Positions 14,777 to 55,833 of a stretch of 64,000 nucleotides of DNA are shown here, piece by piece. Each line of letters begins with the position of its first letter. The first letter of the stretch is position 1. Both the position numbers and the translations under genes were made by a program. The DNA is from Candidatus Magasanikiibacteriota bacterium (GTDB lineage Bacteria > Patescibacteriota > Patescibacteriia > Magasanikbacterales > UBA922): positions 390,612-454,611 of the forward strand of contig JBAYVA010000001.1 of the NCBI GenBank assembly GCA_041674805.1. The letters are read 5' to 3'. The notes below the pieces were generated by a model. That model saw nothing but the letters and a program-made list of their open reading frames with translations, was not told the DNA's origin and did no database searches.

Positions 14777-16180
14777 ATGCAAAAACAAAAACATATACAT
14801 TTCATCGGCATCTGCGGAGTAGCAATGAGTGCCCTCGCAATCGCTTTCCACAAACGCGGATATACAGTTACTGGAAGCGATAAAGGCTTCTATCCTCCAG
14901 TTTCAACTTATCTAAAAGATGCAGGTGTACCTTATTATCCAGGTTGGCACGTTGAAAAAATGACGAAAAACGGCGATCCAGATTTGATAATCGTCGGCAA
15001 TGTTGCAGGCTCAAACAATCCCGAATGGATGTACACCCAAGAAAAAAAACTAAACTACAAATCTTATCCAGAAGCTATTGCTGAATTTTTTGTCAAAGAA
15101 AATTCTATTGTCTGCGCGGGAACATTTGGTAAGACTACGACTACTTCCCTACTCGCTTGGATTTTGCAAGAAAATGATTTTGATCCAAGCTATATGTTTG
15201 GTGGTATTAGTCTAAACGATATGCCAGCAGCCAAATTGACTGACTCAAAATATTCTGTGCTTGAAGGTGATGAATACAAAAGTGCTCGTTGGGATGATGG
15301 TGCCAAATTTTTTCACTACTCACCTACTCACCTACTTTTGACTTCTGTAGTTTGGGATCATGCTGATGTCTATCCAACAGAACAATCTTATTTCACAGCT
15401 TTTGAAAAACTACTCAGCAACTTACCAGAATCTGGACTGCTCGTAACTAGCGAAAGAGTAAAAAAAGAAATGTTAGATTTTGCTAAATGCAAAATTATCA
15501 CTTACGGCAAAGATGCAAAAAATGATTATGTTTACCAAAATGTGACAGTAAACAAAACAGAAATAAAATTTGAAATAAAATATCAAGACCAAATTTTCCA
15601 AATCAATTCTCCTTTGCTTGGTGAATATTTGGTTGATAATATGACAGCTACTTTTGCCATGGCACACCAACTTGGTCTAGCACCTGACAAAATTATTCAA
15701 ACTACAAATACTTACAAAAATGTCAAAAGACGCTTGGAAAAAAGACTGGCTCTAGATATTACAGTCTTAGACGACATAGCTCATTCTCCACAAAAAGCTT
15801 CTTCTGTTTTGCAAACTCTAAAAAATATTTATTATGATGGCAAAGTAATAGCCATCTTTGAACCAAACTCAGGCAACAGACAAAAAGAAGCAATACCAGG
15901 CTATGATAACAAATTTTCTGATGCTGATTTAGTCATTATTCCCAAACTGACAGTAATCAAACAAACACCTGAAGAAGAAAAAGCTATTGAAGGAGAAGAA
16001 CTAACTGAAATAATTCGTAAGACACAAAAAAATGTAAAATATATTGATAATGATAATGAACTTGTTGATTATGTTGTCAAAATTGCTAAACCAAATGATG
16101 TGATTGCTTTCTTAGGTAGTCATGGCTTTCGTAATATGATTGAAGCAGTAGTAAAAGGCTTGAAAGGCTTAAAAAGCTAG
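14777..16180 (+). CDS. Mur ligase, MurC/Mpl family (sequence is closest to the Mpl type; by context the UDP-MurNAc--L-Ala ligase)
   Basis: IHFIGICGVAMSALAIAFHKRGYTVTGSDKGFYPPVST..., GTFGKTTTTSLLAWIL, VLEGDEYKSARWDDGAKFFHY.P..L.L..V.WDHADVY. The DEY..A.(F/W)D and YPP.ST motifs are Mpl-like rather than canonical MurC. Confidence 0.75.
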   Translation: MQKQKHIHFIGICGVAMSALAIAFHKRGYTVTGSDKGFYPPVSTYLKDAGVPYYPGWHVEKMTKNGDPDLIIVGNVAGSNNPEWMYTQEKKLNYKSYPEAIAEFFVKENSIVCAGTFGKTTTTSLLAWILQENDFDPSYMFGGISLNDMPAAKLTDSKYSVLEGDEYKSARWDDGAKFFHYSPTHLLLTSVVWDHADVYPTEQSYFTAFEKLLSNLPESGLLVTSERVKKEMLDFAKCKIITYGKDAKNDYVYQNVTVNKTEIKFEIKYQDQIFQINSPLLGEYLVDNMTATFAMAHQLGLAPDKIIQTTNTYKNVKRRLEKRLALDITVLDDIAHSPQKASSVLQTLKNIYYDGKVIAIFEPNSGNRQKEAIPGYDNKFSDADLVIIPKLTVIKQTPEEEKAIEGEELTEIIRKTQKNVKYIDNDNELVDYVVKIAKPNDVIAFLGSHGFRNMIEAVVKGLKGLKS

Positions 16181-16257
16181 AAAAGCCTGAAAGGCACAAT
16201 CAAAAATAATTCAAAAAAGCCTTTTAAGCCTTTCTGGCATTTCAGGCTTTTCCAGCA
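16154..16257. repeat. inverted pair of 9-nt-phased tandem arrays (AAAGGCTTN x5 ... GCCTTTNNN x5) overlapping the Mur-ligase stop codon
   Basis: aaaggcttg/aaaggctta/aaaagctag/aaaagcctg/aaaggc, then loop caatcaaaaataattcaaaa, then agcctttta/agcctttct/ggcatttca/ggcttttcc/agc. Can fold as a long imperfect hairpin. Same family as 20896-20942 and 54957-55027. Confidence 0.7.
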
Positions 16258-16266
16258 TTTGATTAT

Positions 16267-17170: not shown

Positions 17171-17210
17171 AGGTCACATCCGTAAATCTGGATTATCCGG
17201 ATATCCGAAT
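17171..17210. repeat. TCCGTANNN 9-nt-phased array element (copy A), includes the perfect palindrome CGGATATCCG
   Basis: aggtcacATCCGTAAATCTGGATTATCCGGATATCCGaat. Near-identical to 46909-46946; degenerate copies at 18135-18172 and 24249-24299. Confidence 0.6.
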
Positions 17211-17215
17211 TTTTT

Positions 17216-18115
17216 ATGAAAACCCCCCAACCAACATTCACCGAGCTAAACAAAACACTCGGTATCGACGTCTACCTCAAACGTGAAGACGAACACAAGT
17301 ATTCTTCACACAAAGGTCGTTCTATTCCACTCATGGTCAAAAAGTATAACAAAGAAGAAGACATCACAAACTTTGTAATTTCTTCTTCCGGCAATGCAGC
17401 CATCGCCGCTATACACACTATCCAAGCTCACAACAAAAATAATGATAAAAATTTAACATTAAAAATTTTTGTTGGCAAAAATATTGATAAACAAAAATTG
17501 AAAGTTTTGCAAGCAATTATCGAAGACAAAAATATTTCTCTTGAGCAAGTAGAAAGACCAAAACAAACAGCTTTTGCTCTCGACAAAGAAAATAAAGCCA
17601 AAAATTTACGACAATCCACCGATGATAATGCCCTTACAGGTTACTATGAACTAGCCGAGGAATTAAACAATATCCCAAACTTGCAAGCAATACTTGTACC
17701 AACATCTTCTGGCACTACAGCCCAAGGACTTGGTATGGCTTTTGACACAATACCCGCTTCCAAATTTGGTGGTCAACAACATCCCCAAATTCATATTGTA
17801 CAAACAACTAGTTGTCACCCGATTGCTGAAGAATTTGATAAAAAGTTTGAAAACACAGAGACATCCCTAGCAAGTGCTATCGTCGACAACATTGCTCACC
17901 GCAAAGAAAAAGTCATAGAACAAATAAAAAAATCCAGCGGATCTGGCTGGATAGTGACTGACGAAGATTTGAAAAATGTAGTGAATATGCTAGAAGAAAA
18001 CTGCAAAATAAAAATTTCTTATAATTCTGCTTTGTCAGTTGCCGGGCTTATCAAAGCAATGAATAACGGCTGGAAATTTGAGGGAGCGGTGGTGTGTTTG
18101 ATTACAGGAATGTAA
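17216..18115 (+). CDS. PLP-dependent enzyme, tryptophan-synthase-beta (fold type II) superfamily; ACC deaminase / D-cysteine desulfhydrase-like
   Basis: LKREDEHKYSSHKGRS (PLP-lysine region, cf. FGGNKTRKL), ISSSGNAAIAAI, glycine-rich PTSSGTTAQGLGMAF. Confidence 0.5.
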   Translation: MKTPQPTFTELNKTLGIDVYLKREDEHKYSSHKGRSIPLMVKKYNKEEDITNFVISSSGNAAIAAIHTIQAHNKNNDKNLTLKIFVGKNIDKQKLKVLQAIIEDKNISLEQVERPKQTAFALDKENKAKNLRQSTDDNALTGYYELAEELNNIPNLQAILVPTSSGTTAQGLGMAFDTIPASKFGGQQHPQIHIVQTTSCHPIAEEFDKKFENTETSLASAIVDNIAHRKEKVIEQIKKSSGSGWIVTDEDLKNVVNMLEENCKIKISYNSALSVAGLIKAMNNGWKFEGAVVCLITGM

Positions 18116-18880: not shown

Positions 18881-20566
18881 ATGGAAAAAACTTTAGAAGA
18901 AATTTTATTAGAAATAATATCTTACCATCCCAAAACTAAGGATGATTTTAATGATGCTCGCCGTCGAATTTGTGGTAAATTGAAAACAGTCCAACCTTCC
19001 AACATGAAGCTTTTTACAGCTTACCAGAATTTGTTAAAAAAGAAAAGTATTACCATTGACAAAAACTTAGAATTACTTCTACGCAAAGCCGATATTCGCT
19101 CAATGTCTGGTGTTGCTATTATCACTTCTCTCATCAAACCTTACACTTGCCCTGGACAATGTATCTACTGCCCGACTGAAGTAAAAATGCCAAAAAGTTA
19201 CATTGCTACTGAACCAGCGGCTGCCCGTGCGCTTGCTCTAGCTTTTAGTCCTTACAGACAAATGCAAATGCGCCTAGACATGCTCGAAAAAACTGGTCAT
19301 CCAACTGACAAAATAGAATATATTTTGAAAGGCGGAACTTGGAATGCTTATCCTCTTCGTTACCAATATTGGTTTATTTTAGAATCTTTCAAAGCTTGCA
19401 ATGATCTGACAAGGAAAACACCAACCAAAGCTACGTTGGAAAAAGACTGGAAAGAAAAAACTCTGGAAGATTTACAAAATGCTTTGAAAATTGAACAAGA
19501 GTACAATGACAAAAAAGCTAAACACAAAATCATTGGCCTGACTCTCGAAACTCGTCCCGACGCTATTTCCCCAAAAACAATTTGGCATATGCGAGAACAA
19601 GGTTGTACTCGTATTGAACTTGGTCTCCAAGCTCCAGATGACAAAATTCTTGAACTAGTAAAACGTGGCCACACTGTCGAACAATTTCGCCAAGCTATTT
19701 TACTTTTGCGCCAAGCTGGTTTCAAAGTAGATTTGCATTTCATGCCAGATTTGCCAGGTACGACCGCCAAACACGATGTGGAGATGTACGCCAGTTTGTT
19801 TACTGACGAAGGTCTAAAACCTGACATGGTGAAAATTTATCCGTGTACTGTTATCAAAAGTGCCGAGCTATATGGCTGGTTTGAATCTGGTAAATACAAA
19901 CCTTATGCTAGCCAAGATTTGTTCAACGCTATACTTGAAATGAAAAAGTTAACTCCTTATTACTGCCGTATTTCTCGTCTTATTCGTGACATTCCTAGCA
20001 ACGAAATCGAAGGTGGAAATGCTATTACCAATCTTCGTGAAGCTCTAGAAAAAGAATTACACAAGCAAGGTGACTATTGCAAATGTTTACGTTGTCGCGA
20101 AGTCGGACATTCCGAAAAAATTCACAAAATAAAAGCAGACAAATTAATACCCCAACTTTTTGTCGAAGAATTTCAAACTCGTGGTGGACGAGAATTTTTC
20201 TTGAGTTTGGAAGATGAAGAACGTCGTATAGTCTTTGCTTTCTTGCGTCTTCGTCTACCAGAATATAATGACCAAATAAAAAAATCTGAAATACTTGAAA
20301 AATACCTTGGCCTTGGTGATTTGAAAAAATTAGCTTACGTCCGCGAACTTCATACTTACGGACAACTCGTCAACGTCGGTGACAAAAACAAGTCAGCCTC
20401 ACAACACAAAGGAATGGGAACAAAACTAGTCAAAGAAGCTGACAAAATTGCTAGAGAAAATGGTTACACAAAAATTGCTGTAATTTCTGGTGTTGGTGTA
20501 CGATCTTATTATCGAAAATTTGGCTATAAAAAAATTGGCACATATATGGCCAAAAATCTAAAATAG
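18881..20566 (+). CDS. Elp3-type radical-SAM + GNAT tRNA uridine(34) carboxymethyl/acetyl-transferase homologue
   Basis: 561 aa; radical-SAM cluster CPGQCIYCP, and a C-terminal GNAT domain HKGMGTKLVKEADKIARENGYTKIAVISGVGVRSYYRKFGYKKIGTYMAK that closely matches the Elp3 C-terminus (QHQG.G..L.EEAERIA....KIAVISGVGTR.YYRK.GY...GPYM.K). Confidence 0.8.
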   Translation: MEKTLEEILLEIISYHPKTKDDFNDARRRICGKLKTVQPSNMKLFTAYQNLLKKKSITIDKNLELLLRKADIRSMSGVAIITSLIKPYTCPGQCIYCPTEVKMPKSYIATEPAAARALALAFSPYRQMQMRLDMLEKTGHPTDKIEYILKGGTWNAYPLRYQYWFILESFKACNDLTRKTPTKATLEKDWKEKTLEDLQNALKIEQEYNDKKAKHKIIGLTLETRPDAISPKTIWHMREQGCTRIELGLQAPDDKILELVKRGHTVEQFRQAILLLRQAGFKVDLHFMPDLPGTTAKHDVEMYASLFTDEGLKPDMVKIYPCTVIKSAELYGWFESGKYKPYASQDLFNAILEMKKLTPYYCRISRLIRDIPSNEIEGGNAITNLREALEKELHKQGDYCKCLRCREVGHSEKIHKIKADKLIPQLFVEEFQTRGGREFFLSLEDEERRIVFAFLRLRLPEYNDQIKKSEILEKYLGLGDLKKLAYVRELHTYGQLVNVGDKNKSASQHKGMGTKLVKEADKIARENGYTKIAVISGVGVRSYYRKFGYKKIGTYMAKNLK

Positions 20567-20610
20567 TCTATTACAAAGTTCACGGGGGCTGTCATATCGA
20601 GCATCCCCCG

Positions 20611-20790
20611 TTAGTTCTCCTCGTCCTTCTCGTACAGGCTACATTCCTGTATCCTGCGTCGAATGTACACCTCCATCAACTTGCGGTATTCCCGCCGTTG
20701 TTTTTTGAAGTGCTCAGACGATTTGAATGAACCATTTTGCGTACTGAAATTCAATAGCTTAATCAACAATTGCCTCGTTCTCCTGTTCAT
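20611..20790 (-). CDS. putative small basic protein (59 aa from the third Met; 77 aa from the first) inside a GC-rich island; it may instead be a non-coding or mobile remnant
   Basis: Track ORF MHFCGLMEASTADQGGKAMNRRTRQLLIK...RREYRKLMEVYIRRRIQECSLYEKDEEN. Only the third ATG has an SD-like AAGGGGGTAAGG upstream. GC is about 50% by my count over 20601-20700 versus about 30% in flanks. Confidence 0.25.
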   Translation of the reverse strand: MNRRTRQLLIKLLNFSTQNGSFKSSEHFKKQRREYRKLMEVYIRRRIQECSLYEKDEEN

Positions 20791-20895
20791 AGCCTTACCC
20801 CCTTGGTCGGCTGTGCTTGCTTCCATTAGACCACAAAAATGCAAATCTGTAAAATATTTGCTTCACATTTTAAAAAATGATAAAATTAAACTAAT

Positions 20896-20942
20896 AAAAA
20901 GCCTTTCTAGCATTTCAAGCTTTTTAGGCCTTTCTAGCTTTT
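20896..20942. repeat. GCCTTTNNN 9-nt-phased tandem array (single arm)
   Basis: aaaagcctt/tctagcatt/tcaagcttt/ttaggcctt/tctagcttt; same family as 16215-16257 and 54988-55027. Confidence 0.65.
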
Positions 20943-20948
20943 AACCAT

Positions 20949-21359
20949 ATGATTTTACCTCCAAACTCAATCATTGCCTCTGGCCCTGTCATCATCGAAG
21001 ATGGCAAAGTTTTACTCAACAAAGAAATCAAAGAATCTGGTATTACACCTTGGTTTTTCCCAGGTGGTGAAGTGGAAAGCTTTGATATCAATCTCGAAGA
21101 AGCCTGCAAACGTGAAGCCAAAGAAGAAGTTGGTATTGATGTAGAAATAATAAAACCACTAGACACTTTGCTACACAAAAAATCTGATGGCAGTTTAGTA
21201 ATACTTGTTCATTATTTAGCTAACAGAATTGGTGAAATTAAGAAAGGTGAAAATATTTCCGAAGTTGCCTGGCATGATATAAATAATTTGCCTGATGATT
21301 GTGCTCCTAATGTTAAAATGATAATCTCAAAATATATTGAACGAGGTGTTAGAGAATAA
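20949..21359 (+). CDS. NUDIX hydrolase
   Basis: Nudix box GGEVESFDINLEEACKREAKEEVG. Confidence 0.75.
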   Translation: MILPPNSIIASGPVIIEDGKVLLNKEIKESGITPWFFPGGEVESFDINLEEACKREAKEEVGIDVEIIKPLDTLLHKKSDGSLVILVHYLANRIGEIKKGENISEVAWHDINNLPDDCAPNVKMIISKYIERGVRE

Positions 21360-21388
21360 CACAAATAAACCACAAATAGACACAAATT
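21358..21388. repeat. CACAAAT direct-repeat array (3 units, 10-11-nt phasing), forward orientation
   Basis: aaCACAAATaaacCACAAATagaCACAAATt immediately 5' of the GxxExxY gene; inverted partner at 21785-21815. Confidence 0.65.
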
Positions 21389-21766
21389 ATGGAGGGAGAT
21401 AATAATGTTTATAAAGAACTATCTTATGTTGTAAATGGTATATTCTTTCAAGTTCAAAATGAACTTGGTACTAATTTTCAAGAAAAGCACTACGTAAGAG
21501 CTGTTGCAACTTTGCTTATAAAAAAAGGAATACCTTTTGAATTAGAATATCCTTTCAAAGTAACTTACAATGGTCAATTCTTAGGGAAATTTCAAGCCGA
21601 CATGCTAATAGATAAAAAAATAATTGTTGAATTTAAAACAGTACCATTTTTGAATAATAATCACAGACAACAATTGTTGAGATATGTAAAATCTCTAAAC
21701 GTAAAACTTGGTTTATTAGTAAATTTCAGAGAATACCCTCTTAAAATAATAAGAATCGCAAATTAA
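21389..21766 (+). CDS. GxxExxY-family protein (PD-(D/E)XK nuclease superfamily)
   Basis: 125 aa; YKELSYVVNGIFFQVQNELG..., D..IDKKIIVEFK (putative D...E.K core), ...LLRYVKSLNVKLGLLVNF. Flanked by inverted CACAAAT arrays. Confidence 0.6.
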   Translation: MEGDNNVYKELSYVVNGIFFQVQNELGTNFQEKHYVRAVATLLIKKGIPFELEYPFKVTYNGQFLGKFQADMLIDKKIIVEFKTVPFLNNNHRQQLLRYVKSLNVKLGLLVNFREYPLKIIRIAN

Positions 21767-21784
21767 AATATAAAATTAACTAGA

Positions 21785-21815
21785 AACATTTGTGTATATT
21801 TGTGCACATTTGTAC
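21785..21815. repeat. ATTTGTG array (reverse orientation of the CACAAAT family) between the GxxExxY gene and glyA
   Basis: aacATTTGTGtatATTTGTGcacATTTGTac. Confidence 0.65.
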
Positions 21816-21829
21816 TATCCTATAACTCT

Positions 21830-23083
21830 ATGAACAAACAATCCCTACAAAACTTTGACCCACAAATTCACCAAGCAATAAAAAATGAATTACGCCGTCA
21901 AGAAGAAGGCCTAGAAATGATCCCTTCAGAAAACTTCGTCTCCCCTGCAGTACTTGAAGCACTAGGCTCTGTCACAACCAACAAATACTCCGAAGGCTAC
22001 CCAGGCAAAAGATATTATGGTGGCTGTGAAAATATTGATATTATTGAACAACTAGCCATTGACCGAGCCAAACAATTGTTTGGGGCAGAGCATGTCAATG
22101 TCCAACCTTTGTCAGGTGCACCAGCTAATATCGCCGTCTATTTTGCATTACTCAATCCTGGCGATACTATTCTTGGCATGGACTTATCTCATGGTGGACA
22201 TCTTACTCACGGACACCCTGTCACTCACATGACCAAAGTTTTCAACTTTATCCGTTACAAAACAAATGCTGAAGGAAAAATTGATTTAGAAAATTTGCGT
22301 CAAATGGCAATAGAACACAAACCAAAATTAATTCTTGTTGGCTATAGTGCCTATTCACGTGAAATTGAATATGAAAAAATAAAAGCTATTGCGGACGAAG
22401 TCGGAGCGATGACCATGGCCGATATTGCACATATCGCTGGATTAATCGCTGGCGGACAGATGAACAATCCTGTACCAATTTTTGACGTCGTGACAACTAC
22501 AACACACAAAACTTTGCGTGGACCTCGTGGTGGTATGATTATGTGTAAAGAAAAATTTGGGAAACTTATTGATAAATCTGTTTTCCCAGGTTTTCAAGGT
22601 GGACCTCACGAAAATAATATTGCTGGCAAAGCTATCGCTTTCAAAGAAGCTCTTGAACCAGAATTCAAAGAATACGCTATCCAAATAAAAAAGAATGCTA
22701 AAGTCCTTGAACACCAATTTGACTCAATGGGATATAAACTAATGTTTGGTGGTACAGATAATCACCTACTTCTTATTGACGTCACTCCAAAAGGCGTGAC
22801 TGGCGCACAAGCTGAAAAAGCTTTGGACAAAGCCGGTATTACCGTCAACAAAAATATGATCCCCGATGATCCTCGTAGTCCGATGGATCCAAGTGGAATT
22901 AGACTTGGTACTCCTGCTCTGACTACTCGCGGTTTCAAAGAAGCTGAAATGGAAATTGTAGCTGGTATGATTGATAGAGCCATTACTAATTTTGAAAATG
23001 ATGCTGAATTAGAAAAAATTAGACAGGAAGTAAAAGAATTGACTTCACACTTTCCGTTGTATCCTGAGTTAAAACAAAACTAG
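21830..23083 (+). CDS. glyA: serine hydroxymethyltransferase GlyA
   Basis: [36 protein letters not shown]..., PLP site [14 protein letters not shown]. Start set at the internal ATG 21830, as the track's 21800 start adds a non-conserved hydrophobic extension. Confidence 0.9.
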
Positions 23084-23091
23084 TCAAAAAA

Positions 23092-23170
23092 ATATTTGTG
23101 TATATTTGTGAACATTTGTGATATAAAAACGTGAATAACACAAATAAATCACAAATATACACAAATTTTT
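23092..23170. repeat. palindromic pair of CACAAAT-family arrays (ATTTGTG x3 - spacer - CACAAAT x3) between glyA and tsaE
   Basis: atATTTGTGtatATTTGTGaacATTTGTGatat aaaaacgtgaat aaCACAAATaaatCACAAATataCACAAATtttt. Confidence 0.65.
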
Positions 23171-29729: not shown

Positions 29730-29840
29730 AGCTTACGAGGCTTACAAGGCTTACGAGGCTCATACAATCTCATTAAAAATGTTCACCTAAGTATAACAGG
29801 CCTTGTAAGCCCTGTAAGCCTTGTGAGCATTGTAAGCCTC
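29730..29840. repeat. long imperfect palindrome built from 9-nt tandem repeats (GCTTACRAG x3 ... CTTGTRAGC x5) upstream of era
   Basis: gcttacgag/gcttacaag/gcttacgag/gctcat ... loop ... ggccttgta/agccctgta/agccttgtg/agcattgta/agcctcg; it ends 5 nt before the era ATG. Confidence 0.7.
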
Positions 29841-29844
29841 GTTT

Positions 29845-55098: not shown

Positions 55099-55395
55099 AT
55101 GTTCAACAAACTAAAACAATTCAAAGATCTTCGTGATCAAGCCAAAGAAATGCAAAGTAAATTAGCAGAAGAAAAAGTAACAAGTTCTTCCAACGGTGTA
55201 GAACTTACTATGAATGGTAATTTGGAAATCATAAATGTTAATATTTCTCCAGAACTTTTATCTACAGACAAAAAAGCCAAATTAGAAACAGCTTTCAAGG
55301 ATGCTCACGCTGACGCTTTGAAAAAGATGCAAAGAATAATGGCTATGAAAATGAAAGAAATGGGAGGACTTCCAAATATTCCAGGACTCTCATAG
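55099..55395 (+). CDS. ybaB: nucleoid-associated protein YbaB/EbfC
   Basis: 98 aa; MFNKLKQFKDLRDQAKEMQSKL...GNLEIINVNISPELL...AFKDAHADALKKM. Confidence 0.8.
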   Translation: MFNKLKQFKDLRDQAKEMQSKLAEEKVTSSSNGVELTMNGNLEIINVNISPELLSTDKKAKLETAFKDAHADALKKMQRIMAMKMKEMGGLPNIPGLS

Positions 55396-55423
55396 TTCTT
55401 AGTTCGCAGTTCATAGTTCATAG
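55393..55423. repeat. AGTTCNN heptamer tandem array (x4), left inverted flank of the four-helix-bundle gene
   Basis: tagttctt/agttcgc/agttcat/agttcat/ag. Confidence 0.6.
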
Positions 55424-55429
55424 ATTTGT

Positions 55430-55783
55430 ATGCAAACATGCAAGGATTTGAAAGTCTGTCAAAAATCGATAAAATTAGTTACTTCAATTTATAAATTGAC
55501 AGAATCTTTCCCTGACATAGAAAAATTTGGATTGATAAGTCAGATGAGGAGAGCTTCAGTATCAATACCATCAAACATAGCTGAAGGTTTTGCCAGAAGA
55601 AACAAAAAAGAAAATGCTCATTTTATCAGCATTTCTTATGCCTCCGGCACAGAGTTAGATACTCAACTTGTTATAGCAAAAGAGTTAAATTTCATTTCTG
55701 AACAAAATTTAAAAGAAGTTGCATCACAACTCGAAGAAATTTTAAAGATGCTTTATTCTTACCGCGAATACCTATACAAATAA
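55430..55783 (+). CDS. four-helix-bundle protein (23S rRNA intervening-sequence protein family, TIGR02436-like)
   Basis: DLKVCQKSIKLVTSIYKLTESFPDIEKFGLISQMRRASVSIPSNIAEGFARR...FISISYASGTELDTQLVIAKEL. Confidence 0.7.
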   Translation: MQTCKDLKVCQKSIKLVTSIYKLTESFPDIEKFGLISQMRRASVSIPSNIAEGFARRNKKENAHFISISYASGTELDTQLVIAKELNFISEQNLKEVASQLEEILKMLYSYREYLYK

Positions 55784-55797
55784 AATATTTCAAAAAT

Positions 55798-55831
55798 TCT
55801 AAGAACTAAGAACACTGAACTCAGAACTCTG
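55798..55831. repeat. NNGAACT heptamer tandem array, right inverted flank of the four-helix-bundle gene
   Basis: ctaagaact/aagaacact/gaactcagaactctga; its reverse complement is agttctg/agttcag/tgttctt/agttctt/ag. Confidence 0.6.
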
Positions 55832-55833
55832 AT

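Follow-up and report, generated by a model that had tools for sequence, protein, structure and literature searches.

Inverted arrays of phased heptamers flank GxxExxY nuclease genes: a candidate self-recognising cassette in a Magasanikbacteria chromosome and in many other phyla

Introduction

Small genes enclosed by inverted repeats are known from several genetic systems. The intervening sequences (IVSs) in the 23S rRNA genes of Leptospira and Coxiella carry a PF05635 open reading frame (ORF); an IVS holds an ORF of about 120 amino acids between terminal inverted repeats (TIRs), is sporadic in occurrence and leaves the host transcription unit intact. In the REP/RAYT systems (repetitive extragenic palindromes and REP-associated tyrosine transposases), a nuclease-type gene is flanked by inverted short repeats that are also found as gene-less intergenic palindromic doublets, the REPINs. 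Transposons with multipartite TIRs (Tn7, Mu, IS21, and elements of the inverted-repeat/direct-repeat kind) and foldback elements, in which short tandem repeats make up the inverted arms, have evenly spaced motif copies in their inverted ends. Here we describe a 455-bp segment in a 64,000-nt stretch of DNA (the window; all positions are numbered within it) from a Candidatus Magasanikbacteria bacterium (Patescibacteria), the organism being identified from its GlyA homologues. The segment consists of a GxxExxY gene, coding for a small PD-(D/E)XK protein, between two inverted arrays of three CACAAAT heptamers spaced by about one helical turn. We refer to arm, gene and arm together as the cassette. 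An earlier reading of the window, here called the original prediction, had likened the arrays to the TIRs of a mini cassette, and our analysis follows up that suggestion.

The cassette resembles each of these systems in part, and it appears to lack a defining feature of IVSs, REP/RAYT, multipartite-end transposons and homing genes. The likeness to IVSs goes beyond size, inverted ends, sporadic occurrence and an intact host transcription unit, in that the window has a PF05635 gene of its own, inserted in the ybaB–recR pair and enclosed by inverted heptamer arms. Unlike IVSs, GxxExxY cassettes lie outside rRNA, no rRNA being found in the window or in 80 GxxExxY loci, and the cargo is a PD-(D/E)XK nuclease; moreover, each arm is built of three phased heptamers that follow a consensus across the family, where an IVS has an arbitrary stem, and the arms lack the strand bias of an RNA stem. 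The cassette shares with REP/RAYT the inverted repeats around the gene, their many gene-less intergenic copies, a mostly vertical inheritance and a genome-specific repeat variant. However, RAYTs are HUH/Y1 (IS200/IS605-like) transposases of about 150–300 amino acids, whereas the 125-aa cassette protein matches only PDDEXK_3 in Pfam; a REP is one imperfect palindrome that contains a GTAG motif and has no triplets of phased heptamers, and GxxExxY is often multi-copy per genome. Multipartite-TIR transposons have, like the cassettes, a distinct terminal unit and gene-less derivatives, but the cassette has no DDE, HUH, serine or tyrosine transposase and no visible target-site duplication, and it is only about 450 bp long. 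Seen as an insertion sequence or a miniature inverted-repeat transposable element (MITE), it has the TIRs and lacks a recognised transposase, its sole ORF being the PDDEXK_3 gene.

Free-standing homing endonuclease genes offer another comparison, since a small nuclease gene lies centrally in a symmetric site and since uninterrupted sites are found in three relatives (L208–L210; loci are given as L numbers) and elsewhere in the genome; six other relatives (L213–L218) are without any site at the junction. PD-(D/E)XK homing enzymes exist, for example I-Ssp6803I. The cassette differs in that its site is a multi-copy spacer palindrome of phased heptamers and not a unique gene target, and in that no intron or intein is involved. 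Iterons are likewise short, helically phased motifs, on which several protomers are presumed to assemble along the same DNA face, but they are direct repeats of 17–22 bp beside a rep gene and an AT-rich origin, whereas the cassette has inverted 7-bp triplets around a chromosomal nuclease gene. Integron attC sites have RYYYAAC/GTTRRRY cores, unlike CACAAAT/ATTTGTG, and no integrase is found among the immediate neighbours, the part of the window that was searched for one. We found no description of GxxExxY-flanking arms, nor of PF05635 genes with such inverted repeats, in the searchable literature. The architecture is apparently undescribed, and in kind it appears to be a small selfish cassette with inverted ends.

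Results

The cassette and a gene-less palindrome in the window

A sequence scan of the window found four CACAAAT triplet arrays at 10/11-nt spacing, called F1, R1, R2 and F2 after their orientation. They lie within 2–3 nt of the positions given by the original prediction, and the phasing it reported was confirmed. F1 (21360–21387, plus strand) reads CACAAAT-AAAC-CACAAAT-AGA-CACAAAT, with spacings of 11 and 10 nt. It directly abuts the stop codon of the NUDIX gene (TAA, 21357–21359) and ends 1 nt ahead of the GxxExxY start codon. Its inverted partner R1 (21788–21814, minus strand) reads ATTTGTG-TAT-ATTTGTG-CAC-ATTTGTA, with spacings of 10 and 10 nt; the third unit is TACAAAT, with one mismatch. 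R1 begins 21 nt past the GxxExxY stop codon and ends 15 nt ahead of the glyA ATG at 21830. The inverted pair thus flanks the GxxExxY gene (21389–21766), as had been claimed, and arm, gene and arm together occupy 21360–21814. The immediate neighbourhood, with NUDIX, glyA, tsaE and queH genes as originally named and a radical-SAM gene, was also as expected.

The other two arrays form a gene-less palindrome (23094–23166) that occupies the spacer between glyA and tsaE. R2 (23094–23120, minus strand) has three ATTTGTG units at spacings of 10 and 10 nt, an 18-nt loop follows (23121–23138, ATATAAAAACGTGAATAA), and F2 (23139–23166, plus strand) reads CACAAAT-AAAT-CACAAAT-ATA-CACAAAT, with spacings of 11 and 10 nt. 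F2 is followed by TTTTT and ends 16 nt ahead of the tsaE ATG. F2 is 95% complementary to R1 over 22 nt, and the 60-nt contexts of F2 and F1 are 77% identical. The cores are exact in 11 of the 12 units of the window arms, and the spacers between them are not complementary. The window arms lack the terminal C that, in the family at large, precedes the outermost unit (see below). The original prediction had taken the R2–F2 pair to be an empty or target site; it is clearly a palindrome without a gene that belongs to the same repeat family, and it may be such a site or, just as well, a remnant or a non-autonomous copy. It is also correct that the arrays bracket glyA by position. This is a by-product of the cassette's lying upstream of glyA and a solo palindrome downstream of it, and nothing suggests that glyA is cargo.

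The arrays stand out from the rest of the window. When the 64 kb were scanned blindly for exact 7-mers of whatever sequence present three times at 9–11 nt spacing, three arrays were found, all of them CACAAAT, and none in any of 20 shuffles. When one mismatch was tolerated, no further CACAAAT-type array was found in the whole window. The over-representation of the heptamer by itself is unclear (32 copies versus 23.3 ± 4.4 expected).

As RNA, the R2–F2 palindrome folds at −27.9 kcal/mol (z = −7.0), followed by UUUUU, and as DNA at −21.4 kcal/mol. Under any model it might serve incidentally as a terminator or a cruciform. A terminator scan found no terminator-like site within the arrays; R2–F2 itself is an AT-rich hairpin followed by TTTTT, and a non-canonical terminator role is possible. 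Rfam gave no match at the gathering score in the window, and around the arrays and in nine hairpin-rich loci it gave only sub-threshold look-alikes of miRNA precursors. Two familiar readings of the heptamers were rejected. A single unit resembles the DnaA box TTATCCACA at 7 of 9 positions, but the replication-gene context of an origin is absent. A promoter of the Bacteroides or sigma-70 type would require other spacing, and in the sigma-70 consensus scan the matches overlapping the arrays place the −10 element within ORFs.

The GxxExxY protein

The gene at 21389–21766 (plus strand) is the only GxxExxY gene in the window. Its 125-aa product matches PDDEXK_3 (PF13366; E = 5.5e-30, 104.6 bits against a curated cut-off of 22) and TIGR04256 (E = 1.4e-29, 102.8 bits against 35), which bears out its original assignment as a GxxExxY PD-(D/E)XK protein. 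Residues D71, E81 and K83, the D...E.K triad, are invariant across 116 homologues. The AF2 model (pLDDT 93, pTM 0.85) predicts a bare, compact PD-(D/E)XK core of restriction-endonuclease-like fold, and the solved folds closest to the model are Cas4 SSO0001 (E = 1e-4), lambda exonuclease, AddAB and RecE. A sequence-profile search gave T7 endonuclease I alone, as a weak match (E = 0.2).

The family is very large: a library of 1.84 billion representatives contains about 30,000 of its clusters at 50% identity. A single survey lists the family, and there its function is stated as 'unknown'. Nothing meaningful was found in libraries of defence systems and phage proteins, and the family was absent from viral contigs in two scans and from a phage collection. 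Plasmid records with GxxExxY number 8 of 72,556, all of them large non-mobilizable replicons. The family is essentially chromosomal. About 25 of the best 150 family representatives are proteins of 250–295 aa with two tandem GxxExxY domains, that is, fused dimers.

Turnover at the nudix–glyA junction

Syntenic relatives of the window locus were recovered via GlyA. L121, traced through the GxxExxY protein (99% identity), is the same locus with the same arrays. In L213–L215 (GlyA 86%) and L216–L218 (85%), NUDIX and glyA are separated by only 23–47 nt, with no gene and no CACAAAT-type array between them. L208–L210, with GlyA at 95%, have a 156-nt spacer containing a gene-less palindrome of (C)ACGAAT/ATTCGT units, and L123, the outgroup by the GlyA N-terminus (73%), has a GxxExxY gene at the junction. 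Because the outgroup is filled, L208–L210 hold a gene-less palindrome and L213–L218 are empty, the distribution implies either ancestral presence followed by repeated loss, with the arms once left behind, or repeated gain at one site. These comparisons support the expectation that the window cassette behaves as an insertion into the nudix–glyA spacer. No target-site duplication was found at the cassette ends, where the sequence outside F1 is ...GAGAATAA and that outside R1 is CTATCC..., with no direct repeat. Nor were duplicated bases seen in comparison with the empty junctions of L213 and L216, whose spacers are too strongly diverged for a firm reading.

Where glyA and tsaE are adjacent in relatives, their spacer is 89–99 nt long and contains some palindrome in every case: an F-loop-R of CACGGAT/CACAGAT units in L216 and L217, and a GC-rich hairpin in L211. 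In L208–L210 a PMT_2 gene is inserted between glyA and tsaE, and in L212 tsaE is called 22 nt past glyA. A second small nuclease gene of variable presence was seen at the glyA–tsaE–queH locus. L208–L212 have a GIY-YIG nuclease gene of 96–97 aa between tsaE and queH (e.g., L208, 7175–7465); the window is without it, its tsaE and queH genes overlapping tail to tail.

The relatives bear on the idea that the arrays are a host signal unrelated to GxxExxY, such as a general promoter, UP-like bent DNA or a bidirectional terminator. Each window array ends 1–16 nt upstream of a start codon in a genome where Shine-Dalgarno sequences are almost absent (3 of 59 genes), phased A-tracts would bend DNA, and the glyA–tsaE spacer of all relatives holds a palindrome of similar length. 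Against this, there are only four arrays in 64 kb with about 59 genes, and their orientation is inconsistent, F standing ahead of the GxxExxY gene and tsaE, and R ahead of glyA. In addition, relatives express the same genes without arrays, the sigma-70 scans gave no sensible promoter, and a 16-fold enrichment at GxxExxY genes, described below, holds in phyla of differing promoter types. The array-less relatives and the enrichment largely refute a host signal, and we consider it very improbable.

Arms at GxxExxY genes in other genomes

We then looked at loci chosen by the gene and not by the arrays. Besides L123 (68% identity; nudix–glyA junction; CACGAAT/ATTCGTG units), Patescibacteria homologues with arms were found downstream of gatB/Yqey (L124–L126, 56%; CACGAAT...ATTCGTG units) and between pilB and pilC (L127, 37%; phased (C)TACGGA/TCCGTAG units). 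For scanning a collection, an alignment of ten sequences from several phyla proved too diverse, and a Bacteroidota-type sub-alignment was used instead in a metagenome scan; it gave 80 loci selected by protein similarity alone, 67 of them with both flanks. This large sample is biased to the Bacteroidota-type clade, other clades resting on about a dozen loci, and metagenomic contigs carry no taxonomy. For each locus, the two 130-nt flanks were compared and their best ungapped inverted repeat was scored. A score of at least 12 was reached by 61% of the 67 loci, compared with none of 22 other ORFs on the same contigs and 3% of shuffled flanks.

A generic unit, C[AG]C[AGT][AG]A[TGA], three or more times at 9–12 nt spacing, was used for counting; it was derived from the same data as were counted, and the inverted-repeat test is independent of it. 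In the 67 loci such arrays occur at 4.24 per kb within 170 nt of the gene, at 0.27 per kb elsewhere and not at all within the gene, a 16-fold difference. Upstream arrays are mostly forward (45 F, 8 R) and downstream arrays mostly reverse (43 R, 15 F). Exactly three units are present in 66 of 76 arms, mostly at 9–10 nt spacing. The base ahead of the outermost unit is C in 96% of arms (...GTC-CAC...), that ahead of the inner units mostly A. Between the end of an F arm and the start codon there are 0–30 nt, and the R arm follows the stop codon after a few nt. The unit varies by locus, with CACGAAT, CGCAGAT, CACGAAG, CACAAAT, CACAGAT, CGCGAAT, CACTAAT and others being used.

Arms are also present in isolate genomes and so are not an artefact of assembly. 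Bacteroides finegoldii has perfect F-gene-R arms of CACAGAG, CGCAGAG and CACGGAG between radA and the GxxExxY gene; Prevotella nigrescens has ACAAAT three times, the gene and then an F-loop-R hairpin; and Treponema saccharophilum has a single-unit inverted repeat. A Fusobacteria isolate has direct arms on either side of the gene, and a Sphingomonas cassette between fabD and fabG has an arm upstream only. The prospect that other GxxExxY copies would lack such flanks is therefore not borne out. An arm-gene-arm architecture is the norm of the GxxExxY family in many phyla, and we are highly confident that the arrays are family-specific inverted arms of the cassette.

What constrains the arms

The arms are often perfect inverted repeats with the spacers included (L133, L136). 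Arm-to-arm identity is 96.7% for the cores and 77% for the spacers. Core identity is partly built in, the search pattern alone giving an estimated 0.7 or so, with a spacer baseline of about 0.25–0.3; cores and spacers are both well above baseline, and the cores are the better conserved. Positions C1, C3 and A6 are fixed by the pattern, so that constancy there is not a measurement, but the C-C-A frame is common to flanks in several phyla that were read before any pattern was imposed. The variable unit positions differ by locus, and spacer length differs between the two arms in 11 of 48 cases (23%).

The perfect repeats raise an alternative at the RNA level, in which the arms pair in the operon transcript to give a stem of about 28 bp that is cut by RNase III or a similar enzyme; the cassette mRNA would be excised, as with IVSs, the host messages would stay functional, and R2–F2 would be a hairpin terminator or stabiliser. 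The position of cassettes in tight spacers of conserved operons, mostly in the direction of their neighbours (nudix–glyA, pilB–pilC, fabD–fabG, radA and, for the PF05635 gene, ybaB–recR) fits such an element, as do the strong fold of R2–F2 with its U tract and the naming of the PF05635 family after elements of this type. However, a generic stem would not keep a heptamer frame, a 9–11 nt phase and exactly three units across phyla, and it would not make cores better conserved than spacers or tolerate the 23% of spacers that would bulge. Transition mismatches between arms, read on the sense strand, are of the G.U type in 17 cases and of the A.C type in 16; the absence of a G.U bias gives no sign that a stem in the sense RNA is under selection, and weakly argues against this alternative. 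Direct-arm layouts (R-gene-R, F-gene-F) are unable to form a stem, and none of the 80 loci is within rRNA. Cassettes are co-oriented with their neighbours in 73–78% of cases, which is about the bacterial background. Overall, an RNA-level element is unlikely.

A protein that recognises the units is another candidate. Where solo arrays lie elsewhere on a contig, their unit variant is that of the cassette arms, just as R2–F2 matches F1/R1. There is a correlation between the type of unit and protein similarity (permutation p < 0.0005), and K or R residues at three alignment columns accompany the G-containing unit variants; much of this is expected from co-inheritance, the covariation is confounded by phylogeny, and it is a suggestive lead only. 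We think it probable that a protein reads the arms in a sequence-specific manner and that they are not a generic stem.

Arrays in the absence of the gene

We scanned a single genome from each GTDB species for CACAAAT-N3-4-CACAAAT-N3-4-CACAAAT and found at least 120 loci, where chance would yield only a few, as estimated from pattern length and database size. The matches came from Bacteroidota, Planctomycetota, Verrucomicrobiota/Kiritimatiellia, Chloroflexota, Desulfobacterota, Omnitrophota, Acidobacteriota, Saccharibacteria and others. Some are plain 10- or 11-mer tandem repeats, and many take the form C-CACAAAT-GNA-CACAAAT-NNN-CACAAAT. An inverted partner array lies within 160 nt in 43 of the 120 matches listed, versus 2.6% of random windows. 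The foreign GxxExxY genes that adjoin these arrays, in Acetobacteroides (L030), Verrucomicrobiales (L043), Bacteroidales (L048) and Prevotellaceae (L089), are all bracketed on both sides by inverted arrays, as in the window. When 103 small flanking ORFs were compared with Pfam, PDDEXK_3 alone recurred, with five matches including the window protein; no second family that might be tied to solo arrays recurred, and no transposase family was found among these ORFs.

Two sets of solo arrays were seen in multiple copies. Five loci in metagenome-assembled genomes (MAGs) of Desulfobacterota type or labelled 'Pseudomonadota' (L037, L040, L049, L105, L111) share a near-identical 70-nt element that is arranged R-spacer-F, as is R2–F2, and is composed of ATTTGTGTTAATTTGTGTCCATTTGTGG, a spacer of about 13 nt and CCACAAATGGACACAAATTAACACAAAT; the L037 copy folds as DNA at −28.5 kcal/mol (z = −9.4). 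The Bacteroidales MAG SV3-B6.1 accounts for twelve loci (L006, L053, L057, L072, L074, L083, L098, L106, L107, L114, L117, L118). Nine of them aligned to give ten copies of a composite repeat of about 250 nt, the other three being further scan matches. The repeat consists of a CACAAAT triplet, a variable run of GTTGATTA octamers and a degenerate second triplet with an inverted CACAGAT-type arm, and throughout it has G in one arm where the other arm has A.

A PF05635 cassette with its own unit

The window contains a second gene with inverted arms. A 23S_rRNA_IVP / Avd-like four-helix-bundle gene (PF05635, here IVP; 55430–55783; Pfam E = 1.3e-38; PHROG Avd) is inserted in the conserved ybaB–recR pair. 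Its upstream arm (about 55390–55424; TCATAGT TCTTAGT TCGCAGT...) overlaps the ybaB stop codon, and its downstream arm lies at about 55797–55833 (...ACTAAGA ACACTGA ACTCAGA). These are inverted tandem heptamers, TCNNAGT, with a 7-nt period. IVP genes in two of the loci, L183 and L192, also have inverted arrays of 7-nt period, with units like GTCAGAG. In both, an IVP and a GxxExxY cassette are adjacent in the same intergenic region, each with its own arm type, which suggests shared landing sites. The layout is common to GxxExxY and IVP, and the unit is specific to the cargo family. Since the layout is shared yet the unit is cargo-specific, the arms would be read by, or co-evolve with, the encoded protein and not a common host process.

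This result also bears on the possibility that the cassette is a MITE-like, non-autonomous element moved in trans, its arms being multi-site TIRs for a transposase or recombinase encoded elsewhere and GxxExxY a frequent passenger. Most exact arrays are indeed solo (116 of the 120 matches listed), some genomes such as SV3-B6.1 have ten or more copies of a composite repeat, the 70-nt element with its 13-nt spacer recurs in Desulfobacterota-type MAGs, and the same layout carries the unrelated cargo IVP. But a shared trans-acting enzyme would not predict that the unit tracks the cargo, being C[AG]CNRAT at 9–11 nt for GxxExxY and a 7-nt-period unit for IVP. No transposase or recombinase family is enriched near arrays or present in the window neighbourhood, target-site duplication is not seen, and the same heptamer frame in about ten phyla would need an equally widespread, unnoticed enzyme. 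We regard movement in trans as quite unlikely.

Other periodic repeats in the window

Several further repeats of the window are without an obvious associated small gene. Arrays of AAAGGCT / AGC[CAT]TTT units with a 9-nt period lie at 16152–16261 and 20900–20942; one is an inverted pair in the spacer between a murC-like gene and NUDIX, and the other is a five-unit array ending 6 nt ahead of the NUDIX gene at 20949. An intergenic palindrome at 29730–29842 has 9-nt tandem units, with GGCTTACAA four times, a 32-nt spacer and TTGTAAGCC four to five times; it ends 2 nt ahead of the start codon of an Era-like GTPase gene and is divergent from rplI. The segment at 20566–20900, between an ELP3-like radical-SAM gene and NUDIX, is GC-rich in a 31% GC genome and has a GC hairpin (20583–20610) and a 77-aa basic ORF on the minus strand (20611–20844) with no Pfam match. 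In relatives, this radical-SAM–NUDIX spacer varies widely, between 139 nt (L213) and 680 nt (L208, where it contains a 65-aa ORF). Shine-Dalgarno motifs were scored as GGAG, GAGG or AGGA upstream of the start. Several start codons abut periodic repeats, e.g., the repeat at 17176–17210 (ATCCGTA/ATCTGGA/ATCCGGA/ATCCGAA) ahead of the PALP gene at 17216.

Discussion

On balance we favour a selfish cassette that recognises itself, in which the arms are putative binding sites of the encoded nuclease and the gene-less palindromes are its relatives or targets; we lean modestly towards this reading. The architecture and its generality, the three-unit arms, the units specific to each cargo, the turnover at the junction and the conserved triad are established by the data, and binding and mobility are inferred. 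The heptamers would be protein-binding sites, three per arm, presented one helical turn apart on the same face of the DNA. Iteron-like binding, which the original prediction had proposed from the phasing, remains plausible at these predicted sites. The most likely reader would be the cassette's own nuclease, giving a self-recognising selfish module, and we put the chance that GxxExxY itself reads the arms at about even. The gene-less palindromes would then be non-autonomous copies, remnants or targets of the cassette. The nuclease would cleave a gene-less palindrome or the DNA close to it, and recombinational repair templated by a filled copy, with the arms of about 28 bp as homology, would give homing-like retention or spread. 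A cut repaired through arm homology would be the simplest route by which a nuclease-only element could persist or spread. That spread or retention is in fact homing-like seems to us somewhat unlikely.

A number of observations weigh against the self-recognising cassette. No GxxExxY member is known to show binding or cleavage, and no target-site duplication is visible at the ends of the window cassette. Layouts are not uniform, R-gene-F, R-gene-R and hairpin-gene-hairpin also being seen. A GxxExxY gene adjoins the exact CACAAAT triplet in 4 of the 120 matches listed, so that most arrays, being solo, could depend on something other than GxxExxY; among the 103 small flanking ORFs, the other 14 matched families were represented by one ORF each. 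That GxxExxY and IVP share a layout could mean that the arms serve a common host process, and co-inheritance alone would give the correlation between unit and protein. Finally, in the metagenomic set, orthologous cassettes and their flanking genes show the same divergence (e.g., 91% versus 86–88%, and 95.5% versus 95–96%), and the cassettes are thus mostly old vertical residents. Such old residence is as compatible with domestication or a regulatory role as with selfishness.

The last point leads to pure autoregulation with no mobility, in which the arrays are operators by which GxxExxY or a host factor represses or insulates the GxxExxY gene and the gene is an old, domesticated chromosomal one. 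The closeness of F arms to the start codon and of R arms to the stop, inheritance at the rate of the flanks, and a nuclease triad under purifying selection are all consistent with it. It leaves unexplained why gene-less palindromes with the same units occur elsewhere, or at the same site in relatives, why the cassette has been repeatedly lost or gained among close relatives and similar cassettes stand in unrelated flanks, and why there should be a mirror-image downstream operator with a defined terminal C. We judge it improbable.

The original prediction had also called the cassette mobile. Evidence for movement is limited to presence and absence among relatives and to a few similar cassettes, 85–90% identical, in unrelated contexts. 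The pairs L171/L182, L134/L145 and L141/L142 are 80–90% identical in nucleotide sequence in unrelated flanks. Divergence at the flank rate means long vertical residence. The arrays did not prove to be a general promoter, which would have counted against the original prediction: they occur nowhere else in the window, and their orientation differs by site.

A broader proposal can be made tentatively. GxxExxY and the 23S-IVP/Avd-like proteins might together represent an unrecognised class of minimal self-recognising cassettes, each reading its own phased-heptamer code in three-unit inverted arms and colonising spacers of conserved operons in at least ten phyla, with the gene-less palindromes as REPIN-like dependants or homing targets. 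On the sequence patterns at hand we think this possible, though rather less than probable.

A family-wide cognate motif of fixed geometry provides this very large family of orphan proteins with a DNA partner that can be tested, and natural variants (CACAAAT, CACGAAT, CGCGAAT, CACGAAG) are available for comparing specificity. Annotation pipelines could delimit cassettes by their arms and avoid misreading the arrays as host regulatory sites. The puzzling 23S-IVP proteins become linked to the same kind of layout. In sum, the GxxExxY arms account for a type of intergenic palindrome seen in phyla from Bacteroidota to Patescibacteria, and they would provide, beside REP/RAYT, a second example of a nuclease gene coupled to a dispersed repeat.

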